Both the position numbers and the translations under genes were made by a program. 64,000 bases of DNA from a bacterium (GTDB lineage Bacteria; Patescibacteriota; Patescibacteriia; UBA1558; S5-K13): NCBI GenBank assembly GCA_029555085.1, contig JAKPTO010000026.1, positions 37,217 through 101,216 of the forward strand, in the 5' to 3' direction. The notes under the pieces are model-generated. The model worked only from the letters and a program-made list of their open reading frames with translations, did no database searches and was not told the DNA's origin. Of the stretch, positions 2,653 through 54,660 are shown piece by piece; within the stretch, counting starts at the first letter, position 1, and every line of letters starts with the position of its first letter.

Positions 2653-3237
2653 TTAAATTACTAAATTTAATATTTCACTCCTCAATCTCTCAGTTAAATC
2701 ATTTTCATCTAGATCGTTTAAAACAATTTTTTTTCCTATATTAATATCACATTTCTTTAACTTCGGATATTTATCAAATCTAGACATTATTTCAAACGCC
2801 CCTTTTATACCAACTGGTATTATTGGAACATTTACATTTTTAGCAATTCTAACAGCGCCATTATAAAACTTTCCGAGTTTACCATCACTAGATCTAGTGC
2901 CTTCAGGAAATATTCCAATTGCTCTACCTTGCTTTAAATATTCGATTGCTTTATTAAGTGATTCTGATTTATCCTTTGAATTTCTGTCAACTTTTATCTG
3001 CTTTGTAGATTTAACAAGCCAACTCCACTGCCATTTTTGAAAAAATACCTCCCCTGCTAAAAAATATATTCTTCTTGGGCAAACAGCTATAAGAGTAAGA
3101 AAATCAAAATAGCTTGAATGATTTGCACATATTACAAATGGTCCTTTTTTGGGAATATTTTCAATTCCCTTAACACTTCTTACCCAAACCAACCTAATTA
3201 ATGTTCCAATTGTATATTTTAAAATCCAGTAAATCAT
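2653..3237 (-). CDS. plsC: 1-acyl-sn-glycerol-3-phosphate acyltransferase (PlsC family)
   Basis: 194 aa with the H(X)4D acyltransferase motif NHSSYFD and the FPEGTRS motif. Confidence 0.85.
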   Translation of the reverse strand: MIYWILKYTIGTLIRLVWVRSVKGIENIPKKGPFVICANHSSYFDFLTLIAVCPRRIYFLAGEVFFQKWQWSWLVKSTKQIKVDRNSKDKSESLNKAIEYLKQGRAIGIFPEGTRSSDGKLGKFYNGAVRIAKNVNVPIIPVGIKGAFEIMSRFDKYPKLKKCDINIGKKIVLNDLDENDLTERLRSEILNLVI

Positions 3238-5064
3238 TTAATTATAAAAACTTCTTATTATTTTATTAAAATGCTCTATTATGGTTTCTCTTTTTATTTT
3301 TAAAGTTGGTGTAAGCTCATCATGTTTTTCATCAAATTGGCGTGACACAAGATAAAAATGAACAATCTGCTCGTACCTAGAAAAACCTTTTAATAAATTA
3401 TTAATCCTATCCCTATAAAAAATTTGTATTTTATCCAAATTTAAATAACTTTTTTCATTATCAACTGCTATATTATTCAAAGAGCAATATTTTTCTATTT
3501 CCTCAAAGTCCGGAACAATTAATGCTATTAGAAATTTTTCATTATTACCGATAACAATGGATTGATTTATATACTTATCATAATTCAACACTAATTCAAT
3601 ATTTCCAGGCACAACATTTTTCCCAGTTGATAAAACTATTACTTCTTTTTTTCTTCCGATTATATTTAAAAACCCATCTTTATCCAAAAATCCCAAATCC
3701 CCAGTATAAAACCATCCGTCAGTATCTATTACTTTTTCAGTTGATTCTTTATCATTATAATATTCCTTCATTACAGAGCTACCGCGAACTAAAATTTCTT
3801 TATCATTGTTTATTTTTACTTCTAAATTTTCCAACACAAATCCAACTGTTCCAAGTTTGTATTCATTCGTTTTATTTACAGAAATAATTGGCGAAGTTTC
3901 TGTGACCCCATATCCTTCTATTATTTTTATACCGACATCTTCAAAAAATCTAGCAATTCTTTTATCCAAACTTGATCCCCCTGATATTGCTAATCTTAAA
4001 TTCCCTCCAAATATATTTCTAATTTTTCTAAAAACAATCTTGTCTAAAATACCACATAAAATTAGTAAAAAAAAATTTATTTTTTTATTGTGTCTTTTAA
4101 GTGAGTTTAATTTGCTTTGATTTTTTATTGCAAAATAAAATAAATTATTTTTAAACTTTGAGTCACTTCTTAAATTATCATGAATTTTATCAAAAATTTT
4201 CTCAAAAATTCTAGGCACAGAAATAATTACCGTTGGCTTAGCTAGTTTTATATCATCAATAAGTGTTTTTGGGCTTCTGCTATAATATATTGAAACACCT
4301 GAAACTAACGGAAGAAATTGTCCCGCTACCCTCTCTAGTACATGTGACAGTGGTAAAAATGAAAAAAATATATCATTACTACATGTAGGCGTGTATTTTA
4401 AAACATTTTCTATATTGCTCAATATATTATAATTAGTAAGTACGGCGCCTTTTGGCATGTCAGTTGTTCCAGATGTGTATATTATTGTTGTAACAAGATT
4501 TTTATCGTTTATTGGTTCTATCTTTTTATTATTTTCAACTTTTAAAATATCATCAAAATATTTAACATTTTCTTTCTCAACTTTGTCAAAGGATATTATT
4601 TGTAAATCATCTATTAAATGCTCATCAATTCCATAAAAAACATTTAATAATTTGTCGTTTGATATAAAAATTATTTTGGGTTTTGTTTGTGAAATAATGT
4701 AGTCAATATATTTAGTTCCATAAGTTGTATGAATTGGAACTAAAATTAATCCCAAATAATTACAAGCTAAGTCAACAGTAGGCCACTCCCATCTGTTTTC
4801 AGAAAAAATTACAACCTTATCTCCTTTTTGTAATTTATTCTCAACGAAATAAGAAACTAATTTTAGAATATTTTCATTTAAACTTTTATAACTAATTTTT
4901 CTATAATTACCATTTTCTATGTATGCTAAAGCAGTATTACTTGGATATGTAATAACATTTTTTTTAAAATTAAGATATATGGTATTTTGATCCATTAATT
5001 TAGGTGATTTATATTTTAATTGTACCATAATTGGCCTAAAATAAAAAGAAAAAAACGAAGTCAA
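3238..5064 (-). CDS. Long-chain fatty acid-CoA ligase (AMP-binding enzyme)
   Basis: 608 aa with the AMP-binding signature IYTSGTTDMPKGAVLT, then GYGVTETS and YTGDLG motifs. Its stop abuts the plsC start. The start is uncertain (M1, M13 or M24). Confidence 0.85.
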   Translation of the reverse strand: MTSFFSFYFRPIMVQLKYKSPKLMDQNTIYLNFKKNVITYPSNTALAYIENGNYRKISYKSLNENILKLVSYFVENKLQKGDKVVIFSENRWEWPTVDLACNYLGLILVPIHTTYGTKYIDYIISQTKPKIIFISNDKLLNVFYGIDEHLIDDLQIISFDKVEKENVKYFDDILKVENNKKIEPINDKNLVTTIIYTSGTTDMPKGAVLTNYNILSNIENVLKYTPTCSNDIFFSFLPLSHVLERVAGQFLPLVSGVSIYYSRSPKTLIDDIKLAKPTVIISVPRIFEKIFDKIHDNLRSDSKFKNNLFYFAIKNQSKLNSLKRHNKKINFFLLILCGILDKIVFRKIRNIFGGNLRLAISGGSSLDKRIARFFEDVGIKIIEGYGVTETSPIISVNKTNEYKLGTVGFVLENLEVKINNDKEILVRGSSVMKEYYNDKESTEKVIDTDGWFYTGDLGFLDKDGFLNIIGRKKEVIVLSTGKNVVPGNIELVLNYDKYINQSIVIGNNEKFLIALIVPDFEEIEKYCSLNNIAVDNEKSYLNLDKIQIFYRDRINNLLKGFSRYEQIVHFYLVSRQFDEKHDELTPTLKIKRETIIEHFNKIIRSFYN

Positions 5065-5091
5065 AATAATGTCCCATTTTTATAAAAAATA

Positions 5092-5589
5092 TTATTCAAA
5101 CCATTGTATTGTATAGCCATTTGGCGCCTCTTTTGTAAAATCTCTATGAGGACAAACACCAAAACCAGTATTATCAAATTTCCTTTCAAATGAAACAATT
5201 TGAAATATTGCAAAAGATTTTTTACATCCGTATTCTCCTTCTTGGAATTTATGATATCTGTAATGAAAATTTTGATTATTTAAGGGATCCGACACATCGG
5301 ATAAAAAAAATTTCTCAATTAAATTTCTAAATAATGTTTTCCTGGCATCTATTGTTTCATAACTAACATCCCACTCATTTTGTGTTTGATTGTCTGGTAA
5401 CTGATCAAACTCTAACTTATATAATTCAATTGCTGTTCTTATTTGTTGCGCATTCTCCATTCTTATCGTGTCTCTAATTTTTTTTTGTTGACTTTTTGTA
5501 TACAATCCAATAATTATTGTTGAACAAAGAATAATTGAAACTAAAATTAAAATATTTAAAATAGATTTTGTGCCTTTCTCTGTTTCCAT
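5092..5589 (-). CDS. Hypothetical membrane-anchored protein with a pilin-like helical segment
   Basis: 165 aa with one N-terminal TM helix. The segment RDTIRMENAQQIRTAIELYKLEFDQLP resembles the pseudopilin alpha-1C region, but no G/FTLIE prepilin cleavage motif is present. Confidence 0.5.
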   Translation of the reverse strand: METEKGTKSILNILILVSIILCSTIIIGLYTKSQQKKIRDTIRMENAQQIRTAIELYKLEFDQLPDNQTQNEWDVSYETIDARKTLFRNLIEKFFLSDVSDPLNNQNFHYRYHKFQEGEYGCKKSFAIFQIVSFERKFDNTGFGVCPHRDFTKEAPNGYTIQWFE

Positions 5590-5637
5590 TAAATTTCCAA
5601 ATAAATACTTATATATAAATTATATAATTTTTTCAAT

Positions 5638-5667
5638 AAAAAAACCACCCTAAACTAAGTAGAGTGA
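5638..5667 (-). terminator. Rho-independent terminator downstream of rplY
   Basis: On the minus strand: CACTCTA-loop-TAGGGTG, a 7-bp stem with one G-U pair, followed by a T-run. Confidence 0.5.
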
Positions 5668-5678
5668 TTTTTATAAAA

Positions 5679-6341
5679 TTATTTTTGTGATTCTTCTTTT
5701 GTTTCCTCTGGTTCTTTGGTTTTTTCAGTTGTCTCTGGTGTTTCTGATTTTTCTTCTTCTACTGTCTCTGCCTTAGCTGGTTTCGCTATTACTATTGGTT
5801 GGTCTCCGTCAGTTAAAATTTCAACTCCGGACGGAACTTCTAAATCTGAAACTAAAATCATATCATTATAATTTTCAAGTTTAGATATATCTACTTCAAT
5901 TGATGAAATAATTTGACTTGCGAGACATTCAATTTCAATACGATCCATTGCTTTCACAAGAATCGCTCCTAGTTCTTTTACGGCTTTTGATTCGCCTGAA
6001 AAATTAATTGGGATTTCAACTGTCAATTTATTTTTTGCATCAAATCTATACAAATCAGCATGAATTATTGATCCAGTGATATGATCTTTGGCTATATCAT
6101 GTATAATTACTGGGATTTTTTTGTCTTCAAATTCTAAATTTAAAACCTGTGACTCACCCGTGGTATTAAAAATTTTCATAAACTCAGAATAAGAAACCTG
6201 CAAATTTAAATTTTCATGCTTTGGACCATAAACAACAACAGGTAAATACCCAGACGCTATGAGATTTTTCGCGCTTAAGCCACCAAAATTTTCTCTTTTT
6301 TGCGCTTTTAAGATTAATTCTGTCATTTTTTTAGCTTTCAA
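5679..6341 (-). CDS. rplY: 50S ribosomal protein L25 / general stress protein Ctc
   Basis: 220 aa. The N-terminus LKAQKRENFG...GYLPVVVYG is typical of L25/Ctc, and the C-terminal tail is acidic and Lys/Glu-rich. Confidence 0.9.
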   Translation of the reverse strand: MKAKKMTELILKAQKRENFGGLSAKNLIASGYLPVVVYGPKHENLNLQVSYSEFMKIFNTTGESQVLNLEFEDKKIPVIIHDIAKDHITGSIIHADLYRFDAKNKLTVEIPINFSGESKAVKELGAILVKAMDRIEIECLASQIISSIEVDISKLENYNDMILVSDLEVPSGVEILTDGDQPIVIAKPAKAETVEEEKSETPETTEKTKEPEETKEESQK

Positions 6342-21521: not shown

Positions 21522-21912
21522 GGGGATGTATCAATTTGATGCATAAAAAATTTGTTCTTTGGCAAGTCAAGTTTTGCGAAACTTGTAAAAAACGCTAAAT
21601 CATAAATGTCAAATCATTTATAGAAAAAGTTAAAGTTGCATTTAGTAATCCAGCTTTCAACTTTTCAATTGCTTAATCTTTTTTAAAAATTAAGCCATCC
21701 TCTATCTTCATACTCGATGGGGATTTACGAGGGTGTTATATTTTCGAGTTATACTATGGTAATTTCCATGTGCCATAGTGAAAACTTATGGAATATATAA
21801 ATAATATTTTTCTTATTTATAGTTATTTATAGAATTTTAAAAATAAGATAAACTTGTAGATAAAGAATGAATTGTTAGGCAGACAGGGGTTCAAATCCCC
21901 TCATCTCCACCA
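21522..21912 (+). ncRNA. ssrA: tmRNA (SsrA), standard one-piece form
   Basis: The 5' GGGGATG pairs with the 3' CATCTCC-ACCA, including a G3-U70 wobble (alanine identity element). The T-arm GGGGTTCAAATCCCC lies just before the acceptor 3' strand. A candidate tag ORF runs from GCA at 21638 to TAA at 21674-21676. Confidence 0.9.
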
Positions 21913-23195: not shown

Positions 23196-23272
23196 GGAGC
23201 GGTAGTTCAGTTGGTTAGAACGCCTGCCTGTCACGCAGGAGGTCGAGGGTTCGAGTCCCTTCCGTTCCGCCA
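23196..23272 (+). tRNA. tRNA-Asp (GUC), CCA encoded
   Basis: Acceptor GGAGCGG / CCGTTCC, anticodon stem CCTGC / GCAGG with loop CTGTCAC (anticodon GTC), T-arm GAGGGTTCGAGTCCCTT, and 3' GCCA. Confidence 0.93.
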
Positions 23273-46584: not shown

Positions 46585-47166
46585 TTAATTATTTAAAAAT
46601 TCAGACCATGTTTTACCAGAACCTGGAGTAATGTTTATTACCCATTTCCCCGGTGCCTTAGTACTGCCTAAAAATATCTGACAAGACAAAACATTTTCAT
46701 CTTTATTTTCATCTATAATAATAGACATTAAACCTTTTGGCATTGAAAAATTAATATCTAATGATTCTAATTCTTTTTCTTCGTATCCAAGTTCTGATTC
46801 ATCTTTAATTTTACACCGTAACTGATCAAAATAAAACTGACTTTCTAAAATATTTTCTGAATAAATTAAATTTTCATTATAAAAACCATAAACACCAATA
46901 TCTGCGTAAATATTATATGAATATGAACCATTTACATCCTTTAAAAAAATTATTCCATAACCATTAATAGGTACTGTATTTTGAATTTTTTGACCTGTTA
47001 GTGAAAGATTTTTTGTAAATCCTATTGAATCTTCTATGTCATAAGCTGTTAAACGAAATTCATTTATTCTTCTTGTATATCCATAATCAAGAATAACAAC
47101 ACTTAAGAGAATTACAAATATACCAATCGCAACTACAACCTCTATTATTGTAAAAGCTTTTTTCAT
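46585..47166 (-). CDS. Type IV pilin/pseudopilin (Ala at position -1)
   Basis: 193 aa with MKKA-FTIIEVVVAIGIFVILL. Confidence 0.7.
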   Translation of the reverse strand: MKKAFTIIEVVVAIGIFVILLSVVILDYGYTRRINEFRLTAYDIEDSIGFTKNLSLTGQKIQNTVPINGYGIIFLKDVNGSYSYNIYADIGVYGFYNENLIYSENILESQFYFDQLRCKIKDESELGYEEKELESLDINFSMPKGLMSIIIDENKDENVLSCQIFLGSTKAPGKWVINITPGSGKTWSEFLNN

Positions 47167-47960
47167 ATAATTAATAAATTAATATACCAATTCAATAATT
47201 GCTCTCCGAAAAGAAAAGAAATAAACATTGCAAAAGAAATAAATGGTCCAAGAGGAATTTTTAATTTAGTTTTTTCTTTTTTAGATTTAGATAATAAAAG
47301 AAAAATACCAATTATTGCTCCGGAAAAGTAAGTAATCAATAACGCCACAATTGTAATTTTAAATCCCAAAAGCGCACCCATAAAAACCCCGAGCAATATG
47401 TCTCCACTACCAAGCCATTTTCCTTTTGAAATAACATATTGTATACCAAAAAAAATTACTCCGAGAACAATCCCATAAAAAATATTTAAAATATTATTTT
47501 TCATTATTAAATTAAAAATAATAGATAAAACTATCCCCAAATAAACTATAAAATCCACTATTAAATAGTATTTCAAATCATAAATAAATATAAAAGACAA
47601 AATAAATACAAGTATTAAATAAAATATAAAGCTAATAATTAATTGACCATGAAGCCAAAGTCCAGAAACAAAGAAAAACCAATATCCGAATGAAAATAAA
47701 ATTCCTAGAATTACCTCAACAAAAAAATTCTCAAATTGAATCTTTGATTTACAATATCTACATTTCCCAAGTAAAACAATGTAAGAAAAAACTGGAATTA
47801 AATCTAAAATCCCCAATGTTTTTTTACAATTAAGACAATACGATCTATTAAGTATTGATTTTTCTTCATTTATTCGATAAATCAAGCAATCTAAAAAACT
47901 ACCAAAAACAGCCCCTAAAATAAAAAATAGTATATAGAACATACCATTATTATAGCACAA
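47163..47960 (-). CDS. pilD: Prepilin peptidase (A24 family, PilD)
   Basis: 265 aa, polytopic, with the N-terminal CLNC...CRYC zinc motif and GSGDILLG. It forms an ATGA overlap with the downstream pilin gene. Confidence 0.88.
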   Translation of the reverse strand: MCYNNGMFYILFFILGAVFGSFLDCLIYRINEEKSILNRSYCLNCKKTLGILDLIPVFSYIVLLGKCRYCKSKIQFENFFVEVILGILFSFGYWFFFVSGLWLHGQLIISFIFYLILVFILSFIFIYDLKYYLIVDFIVYLGIVLSIIFNLIMKNNILNIFYGIVLGVIFFGIQYVISKGKWLGSGDILLGVFMGALLGFKITIVALLITYFSGAIIGIFLLLSKSKKEKTKLKIPLGPFISFAMFISFLFGEQLLNWYINLLII

Positions 47961-50339: not shown

Positions 50340-51554
50340 TTATTGATAATATTTATTTCTATTATAGTTAAATTCAAAAGATTTATTAAAATCAGATACT
50401 AATGATGGAATATTTGAAACCATAATTGACTCATCGTTTCTAAAAAATCCCCCAGAACTCCAATTATTTGTTCCAAAAAGAGCTATTTTATCATCAAAAA
50501 TCATTAGATGATGGTGTAAAAAAGAATTTAAATTTTGTTCATTAAATATTTGTTTTAATTCTTTATTTCTATTTTCATCAGTCAAAATTTCTAAATTATC
50601 TAAATGATTTTGCTTTTTCTTTTTTATCATAAAATTAAATACGGAACCATCTACTGAAAAATTATAATCATCTGTTAAAATTTTTACACTAATCTTTTTT
50701 GATGCTAATAATAAATCTTCTGCAATATCTCTATCTGTCATAAGCCAAATCATGGATTTTATGTTGTCCTTTGAATTCTCAATCAGATTCAACATTCTAT
50801 CCTTGATACCAGTATTTATTCTTTGTGGAGTAAACCAAATTTCTAAAAATCCTTCTGGATATTTTATAAGAGCAGCGAATGGATTATATTCTTTTGATAA
50901 TTTATCTCTTCCGCGTAAACCAGAAAATATTCTATCAAATTCCTCTCCATATATTTCAATAATTTCTGGCCTGTCAGTTTCTAAAATAAAACTCGGATCA
51001 TATTTATCTTGAATATAAGTAAAATTATAAGAACTAAAGAGTAATTTCTGGGTCTCCTCGCCTCTATCAATTATTATAAATTTATGATGCATGTATTCTG
51101 ATTTTTGAGTATTAATGTTCCTAGACAAAATATCTTTTCTTGTAATATTATCTCGCTTTTCTGAAAACAATCTATTATTTATATCTCTATGCACATCACT
51201 AAAAACTAATTTTATATTCACTCCTCTGTCTGATGCTTTATAAATTGCATCTCTTATCCTTTCGTCGTTCATAGAATAAATAGCCACTTCAATGGTTTTT
51301 TGTGCAGAATTTATAGAATCAATAACAATTTTTGACAAAATGTTTTGTCCAAATTCATCATTAAAATGTAAACTCCCTGAAAATGGTTCTGTGATTTCTA
51401 TGATTTTCGCAGGCCTAAATTCTACTATTCTTCTCTTCGAAAAAGATGTAAAAAATAAGTATATAAAAATTCCCATTGTAATTAATAAAAGAATTGGAAT
51501 TGCCCAAAAAATAAATGTCTTATGTGATTTTTCTAATTTCATCACCCAGCTCAT
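50340..51554 (-). CDS. Membrane-anchored phospholipase D-family protein (two PLD repeats, the second with a variant HKD motif). Third gene of the RT operon.
   Basis: 404 aa with a TM helix (FIFWAIPILLLITMGIFIYLFF). The first motif is canonical: HHKFIIID...FSSYN. The second is HHHLMIFDDKIALFGTNNWS, with Lys replaced by His at the x-K position. It overlaps the upstream gene by 35 nt, or 23 nt if M5 is the start. Confidence 0.75.
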   Translation of the reverse strand: MSWVMKLEKSHKTFIFWAIPILLLITMGIFIYLFFTSFSKRRIVEFRPAKIIEITEPFSGSLHFNDEFGQNILSKIVIDSINSAQKTIEVAIYSMNDERIRDAIYKASDRGVNIKLVFSDVHRDINNRLFSEKRDNITRKDILSRNINTQKSEYMHHKFIIIDRGEETQKLLFSSYNFTYIQDKYDPSFILETDRPEIIEIYGEEFDRIFSGLRGRDKLSKEYNPFAALIKYPEGFLEIWFTPQRINTGIKDRMLNLIENSKDNIKSMIWLMTDRDIAEDLLLASKKISVKILTDDYNFSVDGSVFNFMIKKKKQNHLDNLEILTDENRNKELKQIFNEQNLNSFLHHHLMIFDDKIALFGTNNWSSGGFFRNDESIMVSNIPSLVSDFNKSFEFNYNRNKYYQ

Positions 51555-53235
51555 ATTTTTGCTGATAAGTTAAATAATTATTATTTTCTTTTGAAAATAC
51601 TATAATAATAGAATCTTCAAGTTTTTCACTTAATATTTCTATTATTTTTATAATATCATTATAATTCAAATCAATCCAAATATTGTCAATAATAATAAGT
51701 TGTTTTTTATTAACTATGCAATGGAGCGCTTGAAGAGCAAAGCATGAAACATTATTATTAAAAGCCAACACACAAGAAGAATTAACATTATTTATAGAAG
51801 ATATTTTTGATGCAATAAATTGATTTTCAGATATTACCTTGATCACATTTTCAATTTCAGAAGAATTAATTTGTTCTTTATCTTTCCCTAAAATAAACTC
51901 CATCAAACTTTTTTCTGAAAATATTTTAGGATCGAAAAAATATGCGCCACAGAATAATTTTTGCCATATTGGATAATCATATCTTTTATTGTCTATTTTC
52001 ACCTTCATTGCCTTGGGATTATAAATACGCATTCCTGCAAAAATTTTAGCCAAACTTGTTTTTCCTGAAAAATTCTCTCCAAAAAATAAAATTCTTTCTG
52101 ATTTTTTAAAATGAAAATCTAGATTTCTGAAATATTTACCATCTTTAAATAATTTTGTTTTTTTTGCGTGAAACAATATTTCATTATGAATTTTTAAAGT
52201 ATTTTTTCTACGCAAAACTGCTCCTTTTTGCAATACTGTTAAAAACAAACCCAATCTTGCTGGAAAAAAATATAAACCAACTCTTAGCGCTTGATTAAGT
52301 GTTCTTGGAAAATAGAACATTAAAAATAAAAATAAAAATCTATTATCTCTACCAAGTAAATTTATAAAAGAAAAAAACTCATTTGTAAAAAAATTGCTTA
52401 AAATTACAATTATCAAAACTATCACAAATACAATTTTTGCGCTTATTCCAATCCAAAGATTTCTTCTAATGCGAAAAAAAGAATCTATATTAACAAGACG
52501 ATCAAACTTTTGTAGCACACTATCTTCATTATTAAAATTTTTATTAAAATATTTTTCTGATAAGCTAATATCGATATGTTTTATTATTTGTGAATAAAAA
52601 GTGACTTCTTGCGAAATATATTTTTTTGCAACATAATAAGCTATTATTCCTATAAGAATAGAAAGTGCCACGAAAAAAACGAAAACAATAAATAAATTTA
52701 ATCCTATTAAATATGCAATGAGCATTGCCACAGAAAAATATATGAACCATCTAATTATTCCAAAAAAAACAATTGATACACCCATTGAAACAAGCGATAA
52801 TTGATAAGAAATTTTTGCTATTAACCTACCCTGCCTTTCGTTGTTCATTGTTTCAACGGGTCTATCAATAAATGATTTAAATATTCTGCGCCTAATATCA
52901 TTTGCAAATAATACCACAATAGTTTTTTCTTGTTTTATAGAAAAAAATGAACTTATGATAAACAACAATATAAAAATAGCAAAAAATTGCCAAAAAAATG
53001 GGTCTAAAATACTATTTAGCTGAGATAATTTATTTCTACTAAATACAATAAGAAACGCTTCTATTACACAGGAAACAAAAATTAAAAGAACAAGACGCAA
53101 AATATAAAATTTATATTTTTTAAAAAAATCTCGTAAATACCCGTAATGTAAAAACGATAATTTTATATCTTTGTATTTATTCCTTGTTTTTCTAATTTCT
53201 TTTATTAATCTAATTTGTTCTTTTATTTCTTTCAT
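51520..53235 (-). CDS. ABC-exporter-like protein (type I 6-TM domain fused to a degenerate nucleotide-binding domain). Second gene of the RT operon.
   Basis: 571 aa. The TMD resembles ABC exporters (ANDIRRRIFKSFIDRPVETMNNERQGRLIAKISYQL). In the NBD, Walker A is retained (GENFSGKTS). The LSGGQ signature is replaced (NNVSCFALQALHCI). Walker B is LIIIDNIW (catalytic Glu replaced by Asn). There is no H-loop His. It overlaps the RT gene by 26 nt. Confidence 0.7.
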   Translation of the reverse strand: MKEIKEQIRLIKEIRKTRNKYKDIKLSFLHYGYLRDFFKKYKFYILRLVLLIFVSCVIEAFLIVFSRNKLSQLNSILDPFFWQFFAIFILLFIISSFFSIKQEKTIVVLFANDIRRRIFKSFIDRPVETMNNERQGRLIAKISYQLSLVSMGVSIVFFGIIRWFIYFSVAMLIAYLIGLNLFIVFVFFVALSILIGIIAYYVAKKYISQEVTFYSQIIKHIDISLSEKYFNKNFNNEDSVLQKFDRLVNIDSFFRIRRNLWIGISAKIVFVIVLIIVILSNFFTNEFFSFINLLGRDNRFLFLFLMFYFPRTLNQALRVGLYFFPARLGLFLTVLQKGAVLRRKNTLKIHNEILFHAKKTKLFKDGKYFRNLDFHFKKSERILFFGENFSGKTSLAKIFAGMRIYNPKAMKVKIDNKRYDYPIWQKLFCGAYFFDPKIFSEKSLMEFILGKDKEQINSSEIENVIKVISENQFIASKISSINNVNSSCVLAFNNNVSCFALQALHCIVNKKQLIIIDNIWIDLNYNDIIKIIEILSEKLEDSIIIVFSKENNNYLTYQQKYELGDEIRKIT

Positions 53236-54427
53236 AATGAAAGTCTAAATAAAAATTATATAATGATTTTATTTTTAAATATTCTATCTCTTTTCTTAAC
53301 AACCTTCTGTTGCGTGGTGAATATTTACCAAATATAAAATCTGTTAAAATACGGAAAAAATCTTCTGATAATTTTTTTATTTGTTCTGAGTTATTGATTT
53401 GTGGTTTATCTTTTATAATTTTTTGAAATTGGTAGTTAAAATTTTTTTCTGGATGTCCCATAATCCTTCTCAGTAAATACTTTTTTTTACTTAAATTATA
53501 ATTTTTATATTTTAAAATACTTTTCCAACCAGCAATAATACGCTTAATATATGATTTTTCTAAACTAATAATTCCTGAATTAAAGCAGTAGCCTAAAAAA
53601 GAAAAATTTTCTTTTGCATCACCAATAAATAATTTGCTATTATTTATTGTTAAATTTCTAATATTCAAATCTTTGATAATTTCTAATTTTAATTTATTTA
53701 GCTTGTCTATGTTATTATCAAAAATACCTATATCATCTCCTATTCTTATATAAAATGAACATTGTTTTTGATATTTATGATCAAGGTCTGTTAAATATAA
53801 ATTATTAAAAAGTGCTATTAGTGGAACACCCTGGACAAGACCTATATCAGGTGCTTCTATCTTACCATTTTTATATATTTTATTAAAAATAAATAATTTT
53901 AATAAATCTAATATTTTTCTATCTTCAAAAATGTTTTCCAGTTGTGAGTATAAAACATTCTTATCAATCAAGTCAGAATAGTTTTCCAAATCTAACACTA
54001 ATGCTTTGTCTGTAGAAAAATTTTTCCTATATCTATGGCAAAAATTTTTTGCTGCAAAATATGGTGGCTTGCCCGGCCTATATGAAAACAATCTTTTTGA
54101 AAAAACTTTTTCAAATTCTGGTAATAAAACTCTATAAATTGCCTGTGCTTTTATACGATCTTTTATATTATAAATAAAAATATCCCTGAATTTCTCGGGA
54201 TTATTTTTTTTAGGAATTGAAACAATAAGTGCTGGCTCAATTTCCCTATTTTCAACTAATTCTTTTTGACAAATATCTATAAGCTCCTTTGAATTTAAAT
54301 CTCTGTCTTGTATTGAAATATTATCCAAACCGTGATATCTAAAACTTTTACTATCTATAGAAAATTTTTCCACTATATCTAAATAAGCAGATCGAATATT
54401 ATCATAAGATACAATTTTATTAAACAT
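53210..54427 (-). CDS. Stand-alone reverse transcriptase, with no endonuclease or recognisable maturase extension
   Basis: 405 aa with RT motifs in order:
- SIPKKNNPEKFRDIFIYNIKDRIKAQAIYRVL (motifs 1-2)
- SYRPGKPPYFAAKNF (motif 2a/3 region)
- LVLDLENYSDLID (motif A)
- GLVQGVPLIALFNNLYLTDLD (motif B)
- FYIRIGDDIGIF (YxDD-type motif C)
- LTINNSKLFI...FSFLGYCF (motifs 6-7)
A ~110-aa helical tail follows. Confidence 0.85.
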   Translation of the reverse strand: MFNKIVSYDNIRSAYLDIVEKFSIDSKSFRYHGLDNISIQDRDLNSKELIDICQKELVENREIEPALIVSIPKKNNPEKFRDIFIYNIKDRIKAQAIYRVLLPEFEKVFSKRLFSYRPGKPPYFAAKNFCHRYRKNFSTDKALVLDLENYSDLIDKNVLYSQLENIFEDRKILDLLKLFIFNKIYKNGKIEAPDIGLVQGVPLIALFNNLYLTDLDHKYQKQCSFYIRIGDDIGIFDNNIDKLNKLKLEIIKDLNIRNLTINNSKLFIGDAKENFSFLGYCFNSGIISLEKSYIKRIIAGWKSILKYKNYNLSKKKYLLRRIMGHPEKNFNYQFQKIIKDKPQINNSEQIKKLSEDFFRILTDFIFGKYSPRNRRLLRKEIEYLKIKSLYNFYLDFHYERNKRTN

Positions 54428-54430
54428 ATT

Positions 54431-54624
54431 TTTAAAAATCGTCCTCAGGATATATAATAAAAATACTATATATTAATAAATCTAATGAAGACCCCCGTCC
54501 ACAAACTGGTTACAACCGTTTCCATTTTAATTAATTCGATATTAACGAATATAAAAAATTAAAACTAAAACGATTATTAATATCTCCTAAAATAGGAGTT
54601 TTGAGGATGATTTTTAAAAGTACA
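54431..54624 (-). ncRNA. Candidate structured non-coding RNA / leader immediately upstream of the RT gene (retron msr-msd-like or DRT-type ncRNA)
   Basis: A 17-nt inverted repeat with one mismatch (54431-54447 against 54602-54618) encloses about 154 nt. Inside are local hairpins CTCCT/AGGAG (54584-54598), ATTCG/CGAAT (54534-54550) and AAAC(T)GG/CCGTTT (54501-54521). A locally GC-rich core GAAGACCCCCGTCC stands out in an otherwise AT-rich intergenic region. The 3' arm ends 4 nt before the RT ATG. Confidence 0.4.
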
Positions 54625-54630
54625 TAATAT

Positions 54631-54660
54631 ATTATAGCATGTCAATAAAGCGTATGTAAA
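54631..54660 (-). promoter_or_regulatory. Sigma70-type promoter with extended -10, driving the RT leader and operon
   Basis: Minus strand: TTTACA (54660-54655), an 18-nt spacer, then TGcTATAAT (-10 at 54636-54631). The predicted TSS is near 54624. Confidence 0.5.

Follow-up and report, generated by a model that had tools for sequence, protein, structure and literature searches.

Several kinds of stand-alone bacterial reverse transcriptase (RT) invite comparison with the locus described here. The defence-associated RT (DRT) system DRT10 consists of a non-coding RNA (ncRNA), an RT and a membrane effector of the SLATT type (PMC12632851), and G2L4, one of the group II-like (G2L) RTs, is a precedent for a non-defence RT of this descent (PMC12337344). 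Retron RTs are described as having two characteristic motifs, NAxxH in region X and VTG in region Y. We analysed a 64-kb stretch of DNA from a patescibacterium (contig JAKPTO010000026.1; the window), in which an RT gene is preceded by a structured ncRNA and followed by genes for an ATP-binding cassette (ABC)-like half-transporter and an enzyme of the phospholipase D (PLD) superfamily. This module is genuine and conserved and, as far as we can tell, is an undescribed RT system of the RT-ncRNA-effector kind. It has the layout of the retron and DRT immune systems, yet it failed the tests for membership of the retrons, the group II introns and the diversity-generating retroelements (DGRs). A preliminary description of this DNA had proposed an undescribed system, and we found no counterpart of the module in Rfam, PADLOC, NCBIfam or the searchable literature; the reviews of the G2L and of the unknown-group (UG)/Abi RTs that we consulted describe no group with these neighbours.

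The order of ncRNA, RT and membrane protein is shared with DRT2, DRT9 and DRT10 (UG17 + SLATT protein). As in the DRT ncRNAs, the RNA is structured and has a conserved single-stranded stretch straight after a stable stem-loop. However, the putative effectors are an ABC-like protein and a PLD predicted to act outside the cell rather than a SLATT protein, and the RNA is without a counterpart in Rfam. The UG26 and UG17 models of PADLOC match only the core of the RT (profile positions 39-288 of 398 and 25-309 of 429), with 107 and 86 bits, below the 132 bits of the generic group-II-like model. Membership of the RT in a UG/Abi group is unlikely.

With retrons the module shares the position of the RNA 5′ of the RT, a long terminal helix resembling a1/a2, the division of the RNA into a conserved part and, after it, variable hairpins, and accessory genes in the operon. 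In contrast to retrons, its RNA contains a pseudoknot, and its RT lacks the retron hallmarks, as the preliminary description had noticed: of 119 RTs in the family none has NAxxH and one has VTG, and the retron models scored only about 1e-5. The junction after the 5′ arm of the RNAs is A-rich (AAAAC, ACAAC), with no conserved branching G. We know of no retron type that has an ABC protein with transmembrane and nucleotide-binding domains together with a PLD as effectors, and a retron survey that we consulted mentions no such pairing.

The nearest relatives of the RT are the group IIC intron RTs and the Cas1-fused RTs. Like the G2L (e.g. G2L4) and CRISPR-associated RTs, it has neither intron RNA nor an endonuclease domain. 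It differs from them in its ncRNA, which is pseudoknotted and dedicated to it, in its two obligatory partners in the membrane, in its motif C, which is R[VIL]GDD and not YADD or YIDD, and in a Ser at the place of the aromatic steric gate. The family profile scores G2L4 at just 2e-8.

Three overlapping genes behind a structured RNA

All parts of the module lie on the minus strand. The RT gene (53210-54427, 405 aa) overlaps the gene of the ABC-like half-transporter (51520-53235, 571 aa) by 26 nt (53210-53235), and the latter overlaps the PLD gene (50340-51554, 404 aa, or 400 aa from an alternative start at 51542) by 35 nt (51520-51554), exactly as had been read from the open reading frame (ORF) calls in the preliminary description. 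Pfam recognized RVT_1 in the RT, ABC_membrane and ABC_tran in the ABC-like protein, and two PLDc_2 domains in the PLD. The ncRNA (54430-54619, 190 nt) ends 2 nt 5′ of the RT start codon. Upstream of it is a promoter-like site (54631-54660) made up of TTTACA, an 18-nt spacer and a TG-extended TATAAT. This sigma-70-like site, read from 54660 to 54631, has 11 of 12 matches and the extended -10 TG, and received the top score in a 5.4-kb scan. The first helix arm of the ncRNA begins approximately 12 nt downstream of the -10 hexamer, and in the sequences of several related loci, too, a -10-like TATAAT can be read a few nt 5′ of this arm. The site probably serves as the promoter of the module. The anatomy of the four parts is secure; their function is not.

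The database contained more than 120 relatives of the RT at E <= 1e-86, all about 400-420 aa long. Those with a name were all from Patescibacteria (Falkowbacteria, Magasanikbacteria, Parcubacteria, Paceibacteria). In six neighbourhoods with 40-60% RT identity the RT, a protein of ~570 aa and a PLD of ~400 aa were encoded by genes with overlapping ends, in differing genomic contexts. A scan of one genome per species added 53 loci. The trio was intact throughout about 55 related loci: according to tblastn, the ABC-like and PLD genes follow the RT wherever the sequence suffices, down to 36% RT identity, and gaps in the trio occur solely at contig ends. Searches with the other two proteins gave 69 clusters for the ABC-like protein (weakest 6e-67) and 133 for the PLD (weakest listed 8e-49), all of them high-scoring and of family length. 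The three most divergent ABC-like and PLD matches were checked, and each was directly behind an RT. The pairwise-identity matrices of the three proteins are correlated with r = 0.90-0.93 (Mantel p <= 0.001). These data establish the linkage and co-diversification of the trio, which is an obligate, co-evolving unit, and the upstream non-coding block recurs together with it in the relatives. They support the view of a bacterial RT that stands alone, is preceded by a structured RNA of its own, and is co-transcribed and translationally coupled with two membrane proteins. As far as sampled, the module is confined to Patescibacteria.

A housekeeping pair of flippase and lipid synthase that merely happens to stand beside an RT, which the preliminary description had named as a finding that would speak against a system, was rejected: neither protein was found without the RT in these searches, in which the three most divergent matches were checked, and the PLD is of the nuclease type.

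Many module-bearing assemblies of the TPA (third-party annotation) class (L012-L014, L021, L024 and others; loci are cited by their L numbers) are labelled 'uncultured Gammaproteobacteria', and some of them are single contigs of 0.5 Mb. Given these contigs, and module proteins that are close to those of named Patescibacteria, the labels look wrong.

Architecture of the RNA and its exchangeable cassette

The leader folds with -53.9 kcal/mol (z = -6.4), and none of 200 shuffled sequences was as stable. In the alignments the parts follow each other in the order P1 5′ arm, A-rich junction, P2, pseudoknot stretch, P3, P4, single-stranded motif, P5 and P1 3′ arm. In the window the closing helix P1 is formed by 54619-54602 and 54447-54430 (TTTTAAAAATCATCCTCA / TGAGGACGATTTTTAAAA). 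The junction AAAAC (54602-54598) leads into the small hairpin P2 (54598-54584). The pseudoknot pairs the six bases of ATATTA (54583-54578) with TAATAT (54544-54539) in the apical loop of the long hairpin P3 (54578-54514). P3 is followed by the variable hairpin P4 (54500-54489), the conserved single-stranded motif (54488-54474) and the hairpin P5 (54473-54450). The closing helix is present in every locus; it has 12-30 bp, spans 170-300 nt and ends 0-30 nt before the start codon. The length of P3 is constant across the family (56-62 nt). P4 is hypervariable, with one to four GC-rich hairpins in 28-140 nt, and the single-stranded motif on its 3′ side, CUCAUUGGAUUUAAU or variants of it, is conserved.

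The structure was examined by covariation. In a MAFFT alignment of 31 RNAs 85% of the cells were paired, as compared to 35-48% when the partners were slid against each other; compensatory changes were found in 37 of 46 pairs, and the observed values were reached by 0 of 500 shuffles. A covariance model, built without the pseudoknot, located the RNA directly 5′ of the RT in almost all loci, with 128 bits (E = 1e-27) for the match in the window. In the 51-sequence alignment made with this model 89% of the cells were paired (slid controls 38-45%) and 43 of 45 pairs covaried. In the same alignment the pseudoknot was 97% paired, with covariation in 6 of 6 pairs. Because the pseudoknot was absent from the covariance model, its support is an independent test. 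It occurs in at least eight variants, including ATATTA:TAATAT, ATGCCG:CGGCAT, ATATCA:TGATAT, GCATTA:TAATGC and GTGTTA:TAACAC. The long-range helix that had been thought to bound the leader is thus real, with compensatory changes in about 50 loci.

No Rfam family matched the RNA in the region, the whole window or five related loci, even at E <= 1; the output for these sequences contained just tRNAs, a tmRNA and spurious hairpin matches. In the 0.72 Mb searched the RNA was found solely near these RTs and never by other genes. The upstream RNA is a real, new structured RNA family with a well-supported pseudoknot.

In six loci two or three tandem copies of the RNA precede a single RT (L019:5515-5745, L023:5621-5998, L039:5604-5989, L046:925-1509, L064:5394-5976, L010:6146-6952). 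Within a locus the scaffolds of the copies are 87-100% identical, whereas the P4 inserts have no similarity to each other. P4 therefore behaves like an exchangeable cassette, modular and hypervariable within a conserved RNA structure. The first copy in L019 stands directly after a tRNA gene (5417-5500). Behind this copy come two codons of the RT, then a stop codon and a terminator hairpin, which makes it a stand-alone RNA gene. In L013 the ncRNA (3806-3982) is about 2 kb away from the RT start (6001), and two pilin-like paralogues lie in between (4070-5065 and 5093-5992). These have class III prepilin N-termini, one of them is annotated N_methyl, and a third paralogue is located upstream (2794-3798); the locus has either been rearranged at this family of pilin genes or shows an assembly effect there. 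The tandem copies, the exchangeable P4, the orphan copy of L019 and the separation in L013 speak for the RNA as a partner molecule and not just a translational leader.

Apart from the tandem copies, no segment of the RNA recurs in the loci, which argues against a DGR-like target. For template repeats of the A-B-A′ type that DRT10 has, the window offers candidates like ATTAGATTTATTA, but in AT-rich sequence these could not be distinguished from chance. The ncRNA is AT-rich and, judged by eye and not by an ORF scan, looks stop-rich on both strands, which touches on the question of a DRT2-like 'neo' ORF. P4 as a spacer-like match to viruses was rejected: of three exact-word scans of IMG/VR two were empty, and the third gave five matches to a GC-rich 19-mer palindrome, of which the one locus examined had 73% GC and no extension, pointing to chance.

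Sequence signatures of the three proteins

The RT is group-II-intron-like and comprises RT0-7 and the thumb, with no endonuclease domain. Motif A (DLENYSD, 53992-53972), motif B (QGVPL, 53833-53819) and motif C (RIGDD, 53746-53732) are all present, and the Asp of motif A and the GDD of motif C are invariant in the family. The catalytic residues are intact, from which polymerase activity is predicted. Motif C is R[VIL]GDD in 119 of 119 family RTs.

Beside the models mentioned above, the top matches of the RT in PADLOC included the Cas1-fused RT (101 bits); all these matches cover the RT core only. The E-values were 1e-31 to 1e-39 for the group-II-like models and 8e-6 to 3e-5 for the retron models. 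In NCBIfam the sole match was the group II RT/maturase model TIGR04416, with 125 bits, below its cut-off of 300 bits. When the family profile was run against all Protein Data Bank (PDB) sequences, the best match was the GsI-IIC RT (3.9e-31), followed by other group IIC RTs (~1e-28) and Cas6-RT-Cas1 (4.6e-26). LtrA (1e-15), DRT2 (3e-11) and retron Ec86 (2.6e-5) were weaker. An exhaustive profile search gave about 50 family representatives, and the next neighbours outside the family were double-RT fusions with maturase domains and fusions of RT, TPR and primase ('TOTE'). By similarity, i.e. by profile hidden Markov model scores alone, the RT is placed with the domesticated group-II-like RTs: it is most similar to group II intron RTs, and no intron RNA accompanies it. 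The profile comparison that the preliminary description had suggested as a check thus spoke against a retron, and the lack of ribozyme domains in the Rfam search spoke against a group II intron.

The description of the RT motifs as canonical applies to RIGDD and the other motifs, but not to the steric gate. In the GsI-IIC RT this position is F143, an aromatic residue said to be conserved in all RTs; its roles are given as stacking on the sugar of the dNTP, exclusion of rNTPs and support of non-templated addition (PMC8363836). The aligned position is Ser in approximately 88% of the family RTs, otherwise Thr or Ala. In the window RT this Ser is S151, in motif A. The nearest relatives outside the family carry F or Y, or T or A. 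From these two features of the active site, motif C and the Ser, we infer that the discrimination between dNTP and rNTP sugars may be relaxed and non-templated addition weak.

The ABC-like protein is made up of a basic helix at the N-terminus, six transmembrane helices and a nucleotide-binding domain that is degenerate. Its AF2 model (mean predicted confidence, pLDDT, 81.7) was matched by Foldseek with probability 1.00 to PglK, MsbA, TM287/288 and PCAT1 over about 570-595 columns, i.e. full length, and the family profile detects the nucleotide-binding domain of PCAT1 and the transmembrane domain of MsbA. It thus shares with the type IV exporters (MsbA/PglK/PCAT) the full-length fold of six transmembrane helices plus nucleotide-binding domain, with Walker A (GENFSGKT, 52080-52057) and the Asp of Walker B (IIIDN, 51696-51682) kept. 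Unlike them it lacks the catalytic motifs of a functional ABC exporter. The 47-51 family members examined retain just Walker A, with an invariant Lys, and the Asp of Walker B. In at least 90% of them, as in the window protein, Asn stands in place of the catalytic Glu, and the family has no Q-loop Gln, no LSGGQ signature and no H-loop His. The 'full ABC exporter' of the preliminary description thus has the fold, with an ATPase site that is degenerate in every member. Because the catalytic motifs are missing family-wide, a homodimer would have two dead sites. The simplest explanation is nucleotide binding without turnover, which would make the protein a switch or gate and not a pump.

The PLD has an N-terminal transmembrane helix (51512-51450) and two catalytic motifs. 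Motif 1 (HHKFIIID, 51089-51066; H156, K158, D163) is invariant and canonical, and motif 2 (HHHLMIFD, 50516-50493; H347, H349, D354) is an invariant H-x-H-x4-D, in which His replaces Lys. With both motifs of the superfamily in place, the protein is predicted to be an active enzyme. The AF2 model (pLDDT 94) shows an HKD fold with two lobes and a long helix at the N-terminus, and its matches in structure were a bacterial PLD, PLD3/PLD4 and vaccinia F13. The fold alone does not separate nucleases from lipid PLDs. The sequence neighbours belong to the nuclease branch (Zucchini/MitoPLD, NucT, Nuc), and the match to cardiolipin synthase is negligible (0.022). A lipid-acting PLD of the cardiolipin or phosphatidylserine synthase type was rejected on the basis of these matches. 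The preliminary 'membrane PLD' thus stands as a membrane-anchored PLD, although it is closest to Nuc, Zucchini and NucT nucleases and not to lipid enzymes. The DrmC models of PADLOC also match it.

Taken by sequence and structure together, the closest described proteins are Nuc, NucT and Zucchini (MitoPLD), and PLD3/PLD4. Zucchini and PLD3/4 are anchored by an N-terminal transmembrane helix, and PLD3/4 have two lobes that face away from the cytoplasm. The module PLD is likewise two-lobed and predicted to face away from the cytoplasm. In contrast to the Nuc-type nucleases it contains two Nuc-like lobes in one chain, has the variant motif 2, and is always behind an RT. The predicted topology is N-in, C-out. 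The Lys and Arg residues flanking the transmembrane helix are more numerous on the N-terminal than on the C-terminal side in 103 of 114 family members (means 5.1 vs 2.2), which by the positive-inside rule would place the catalytic domain outside the membrane. The prediction refers to the family count; the window protein alone is ambiguous (4 vs 4). With its catalytic domain predicted outside the cell, the PLD would not be the usual cytoplasmic DNA-degrading effector.

Possible functions and genomic neighbourhood

Tentatively, we regard the module as an RT-ncRNA conflict or defence module, most likely directed against phages or other mobile genetic elements, with an output at the membrane or cell surface and not in the cytoplasm. 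This reading is favoured by the base rate and by the layout: an RT, a dedicated structured RNA and co-evolving non-polymerase partners resemble retrons and DRT2, DRT9 and DRT10. By analogy with these systems, the transcript would begin at the ncRNA. The RT would bind the scaffold of P1, P2, pseudoknot, P3 and single-stranded motif, and would template a small nucleic-acid product from part of the RNA, most plausibly from the P4/P5 side by the conserved motif. The complex of RT, RNA and product might then dock on the cytoplasmic face of the ABC-like dimer, where the degenerate nucleotide-binding domains and the basic N-terminal helix are located. A change of the complex, e.g. upon attack by phage or foreign DNA, could be signalled through the transmembrane domains to the membrane/PLD pair.

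Several observations weigh against a defence function. The composition of the module is native: the GC content of the three genes (21-27%) is close to that of the flanks (22-31%), with no step at the module borders and thus no compositional island. The flanking genes of about 50 loci included no known defence gene, and no integrases or transposases are consistently near the module. The contexts are housekeeping, and the synteny, which differs between subclades, is stable within them. The lone contig with the RT in IMG/VR (L068, IMGVR_UViG_3300001866_000229) shares its two giant upstream ORFs with L006, a cellular locus. It is therefore probably a misfiled Patescibacteria fragment, and a phage-encoded origin was rejected. 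The predicted outward PLD fits the usual logic of abortive-infection nucleases poorly, and we know of no role for a hydrolysis-dead ABC dimer in any RT system. Part of the conservation of the RNA could be due to translational control, since the 3′ arm of P1 resembles a Shine-Dalgarno (SD) sequence near the start codon. Since neither of these two parts, the outward nuclease or the dead ABC fold, follows the usual scheme of abortive infection, the rival explanations below keep some probability. Since no known defence gene adjoins the module in the loci examined, defence is an analogy and not a finding; the 'defence islet' of the preliminary description was not borne out.

The module could instead be a lineage-specific housekeeping device of the envelope or of DNA uptake, which we consider unlikely. 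On this view these auxotrophic episymbionts would depend on the ecto-nuclease and the ABC-like protein for processing or scavenging nucleic acid or lipid from outside the cell, the RT would work on DNA like G2L4 in repair, and the RNA would regulate the RT. The native composition and the conserved synteny would agree with this, G2L4 provides the non-defence precedent (PMC12337344), and NucT, a nuclease associated with transformation, is among the top PLD matches. Genes of type IV pili, competence and recombination often adjoin the module, at 46585-47960 in the window and in the flanks of L001, L003, L008, L010, L013, L018, L045 and L067; recurrent types are pseudopilin, prepilin peptidase, pilins, T2SSE/F, PilM, DprA, ComM-like, SSB, RecG and RadA. 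However, enrichment of such neighbours is not claimed, since a rough expectation for small genomes of ~800 genes is of the same order. Furthermore, G2L4 is without a counterpart of the template-like RNA that is dedicated to this RT, and its profile score is weak. The module also looks like an accessory element. At least three genomes, although only 0.6-1 Mb in size, contain two divergent copies, one pair on a single 568-kb contig. In the sole close relative recovered (L069:1-3779, RecG 88% identical) a gene for a signal-peptide protein is 5′ of recG, and neither RT nor RNA is present there. The second copies, the differing contexts and the absence from this site argue for an accessory module. 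As paralogous copies within one genome are just ~48% identical, there was no recent retromobility.

It is also unlikely that the RNA is merely a cis-regulatory leader, i.e. an autoregulatory RT-binding site like DIVa of group II introns, or a riboswitch, and neither a template nor a partner in trans. The 3′ arm of P1 is purine-rich and SD-like (GAGGA, GGGGA), at a distance of 0-30 nt from the start codon. The 5′ arm that pairs with it, AUCAUCCUCA, looks similar to an anti-SD sequence, and riboswitches can occur in tandem. But P1 also covaries into non-SD sequences such as TTAAGAGC, unrelated P4 cassettes are found inside identical scaffolds, the orphan copy of L019 has its own terminator and no gene downstream, and, except for L013 with its distance of about 2 kb, the RNA was found solely directly 5′ of these RTs. 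The purine-rich arm could additionally control the translation of the RT.

Export of nucleic acid is a rather unlikely alternative. Here the RT would copy P4, and the product would leave through the ABC-like channel and be trimmed or released by the ecto-nuclease; as a secreted oligonucleotide or eDNA it would act on the host, on competitors or at the cell surface. The predicted topology would fit, with a cytoplasmic RT, an exporter fold nearest to PglK, MsbA and PCAT1 and an outward Nuc-type nuclease, and so would the hypervariable, array-forming cassette and the strict coupling of the three genes. On the other hand, ATP-driven pumping is unlikely because a homodimer would have no catalytic Glu, no signature and no H-loop at either of its sites, and to our knowledge no ABC exporter carries nucleic acids.

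A related and improbable idea is a synthesis-and-display or secretion device of episymbionts, in which an RT with relaxed sugar selectivity (Ser gate, GDD as in RNA-dependent RNA polymerases) would copy P4 into RNA, DNA or a mixed polymer. The product would thread or gate the dead ABC channel and be processed at the surface by the outward Zucchini/Nuc-type nuclease; if so, the tandem scaffold-cassette arrays would encode several payloads.

That the module is a degenerate member of a known retroelement class (group II intron, retron or DGR) is very improbable: the RT is nearest to group IIC intron RTs and the RNA 5′ of it has a retron-like closing helix, but no Rfam intron model matched at E <= 1, there are just 190 nt upstream and the next gene overlaps the 3′ end of the RT, the retron motifs and the branching G are missing, and no TR/VR-like (template/variable) repeat was found in the loci, nor was an Avd-like gene noted among the called and clustered neighbours, of which just the recurrent flank clusters were annotated.

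If the RT-ncRNA-effector system is real, it would be, as far as we found, the first group-II-intron-like RT with its own conserved, template-like ncRNA and dedicated effectors. The design principle of retrons and DRTs would then hold for a third RT lineage, and would reach the Patescibacteria, in which DGR RTs had been taken to be dominant. The RNA would be a new structured family with a pseudoknot and a hypervariable cassette able to form arrays. A natural RT without the aromatic steric gate would bear on sugar selectivity and non-templated addition, and may interest enzyme engineers. A hydrolysis-dead ABC exporter fold combined with an outward nuclease would be unprecedented among RT systems and would hint at transmembrane signalling or transport.

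In the window the module is flanked on one side by genes for rubrerythrin, desulfoferrodoxin, two base-excision enzymes, a prepilin peptidase and a pseudopilin, and on the other side by RecG and RadA (read from the translations); Pfam confirmed the rubrerythrin homologue. In L069 a gene for an Asp/Glu-racemase-like protein is inserted between recG and radA. Elsewhere in the window a tmRNA gene and a tRNA gene (21522-21912 and 23196-23269) are the sole Rfam matches with gathering scores.

A conserved protein of ~197 aa is encoded directly after the PLD in L006 (11218-11829) and in 11 other loci of the distant RT subgroup, and upstream in L056 (3260-3850); the gene is absent from the window. Its Pfam matches are sub-threshold only, one of them to an N-terminal transmembrane domain, and the gene often precedes genes of cupredoxin-like proteins. 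This putative membrane protein and the cupredoxin-like proteins are stable neighbours of the module in twelve loci. It could be a fourth component of the distant subgroup or mere lineage synteny.

Six loci, all of the subgroup of the window, have a gene for a sigma-70 factor of the ECF (extracytoplasmic function) type 3′ of the PLD. It follows the PLD directly in L014 (10140-10712) and L049 (10222-10824), and is the second downstream ORF in L020 (6781-7368), L022 (10566-11156), L031 (11607-12194) and L034 (8936-9523). A conserved 250-aa protein is encoded after the sigma gene in L014 and L049, and upstream of the RT in L022.

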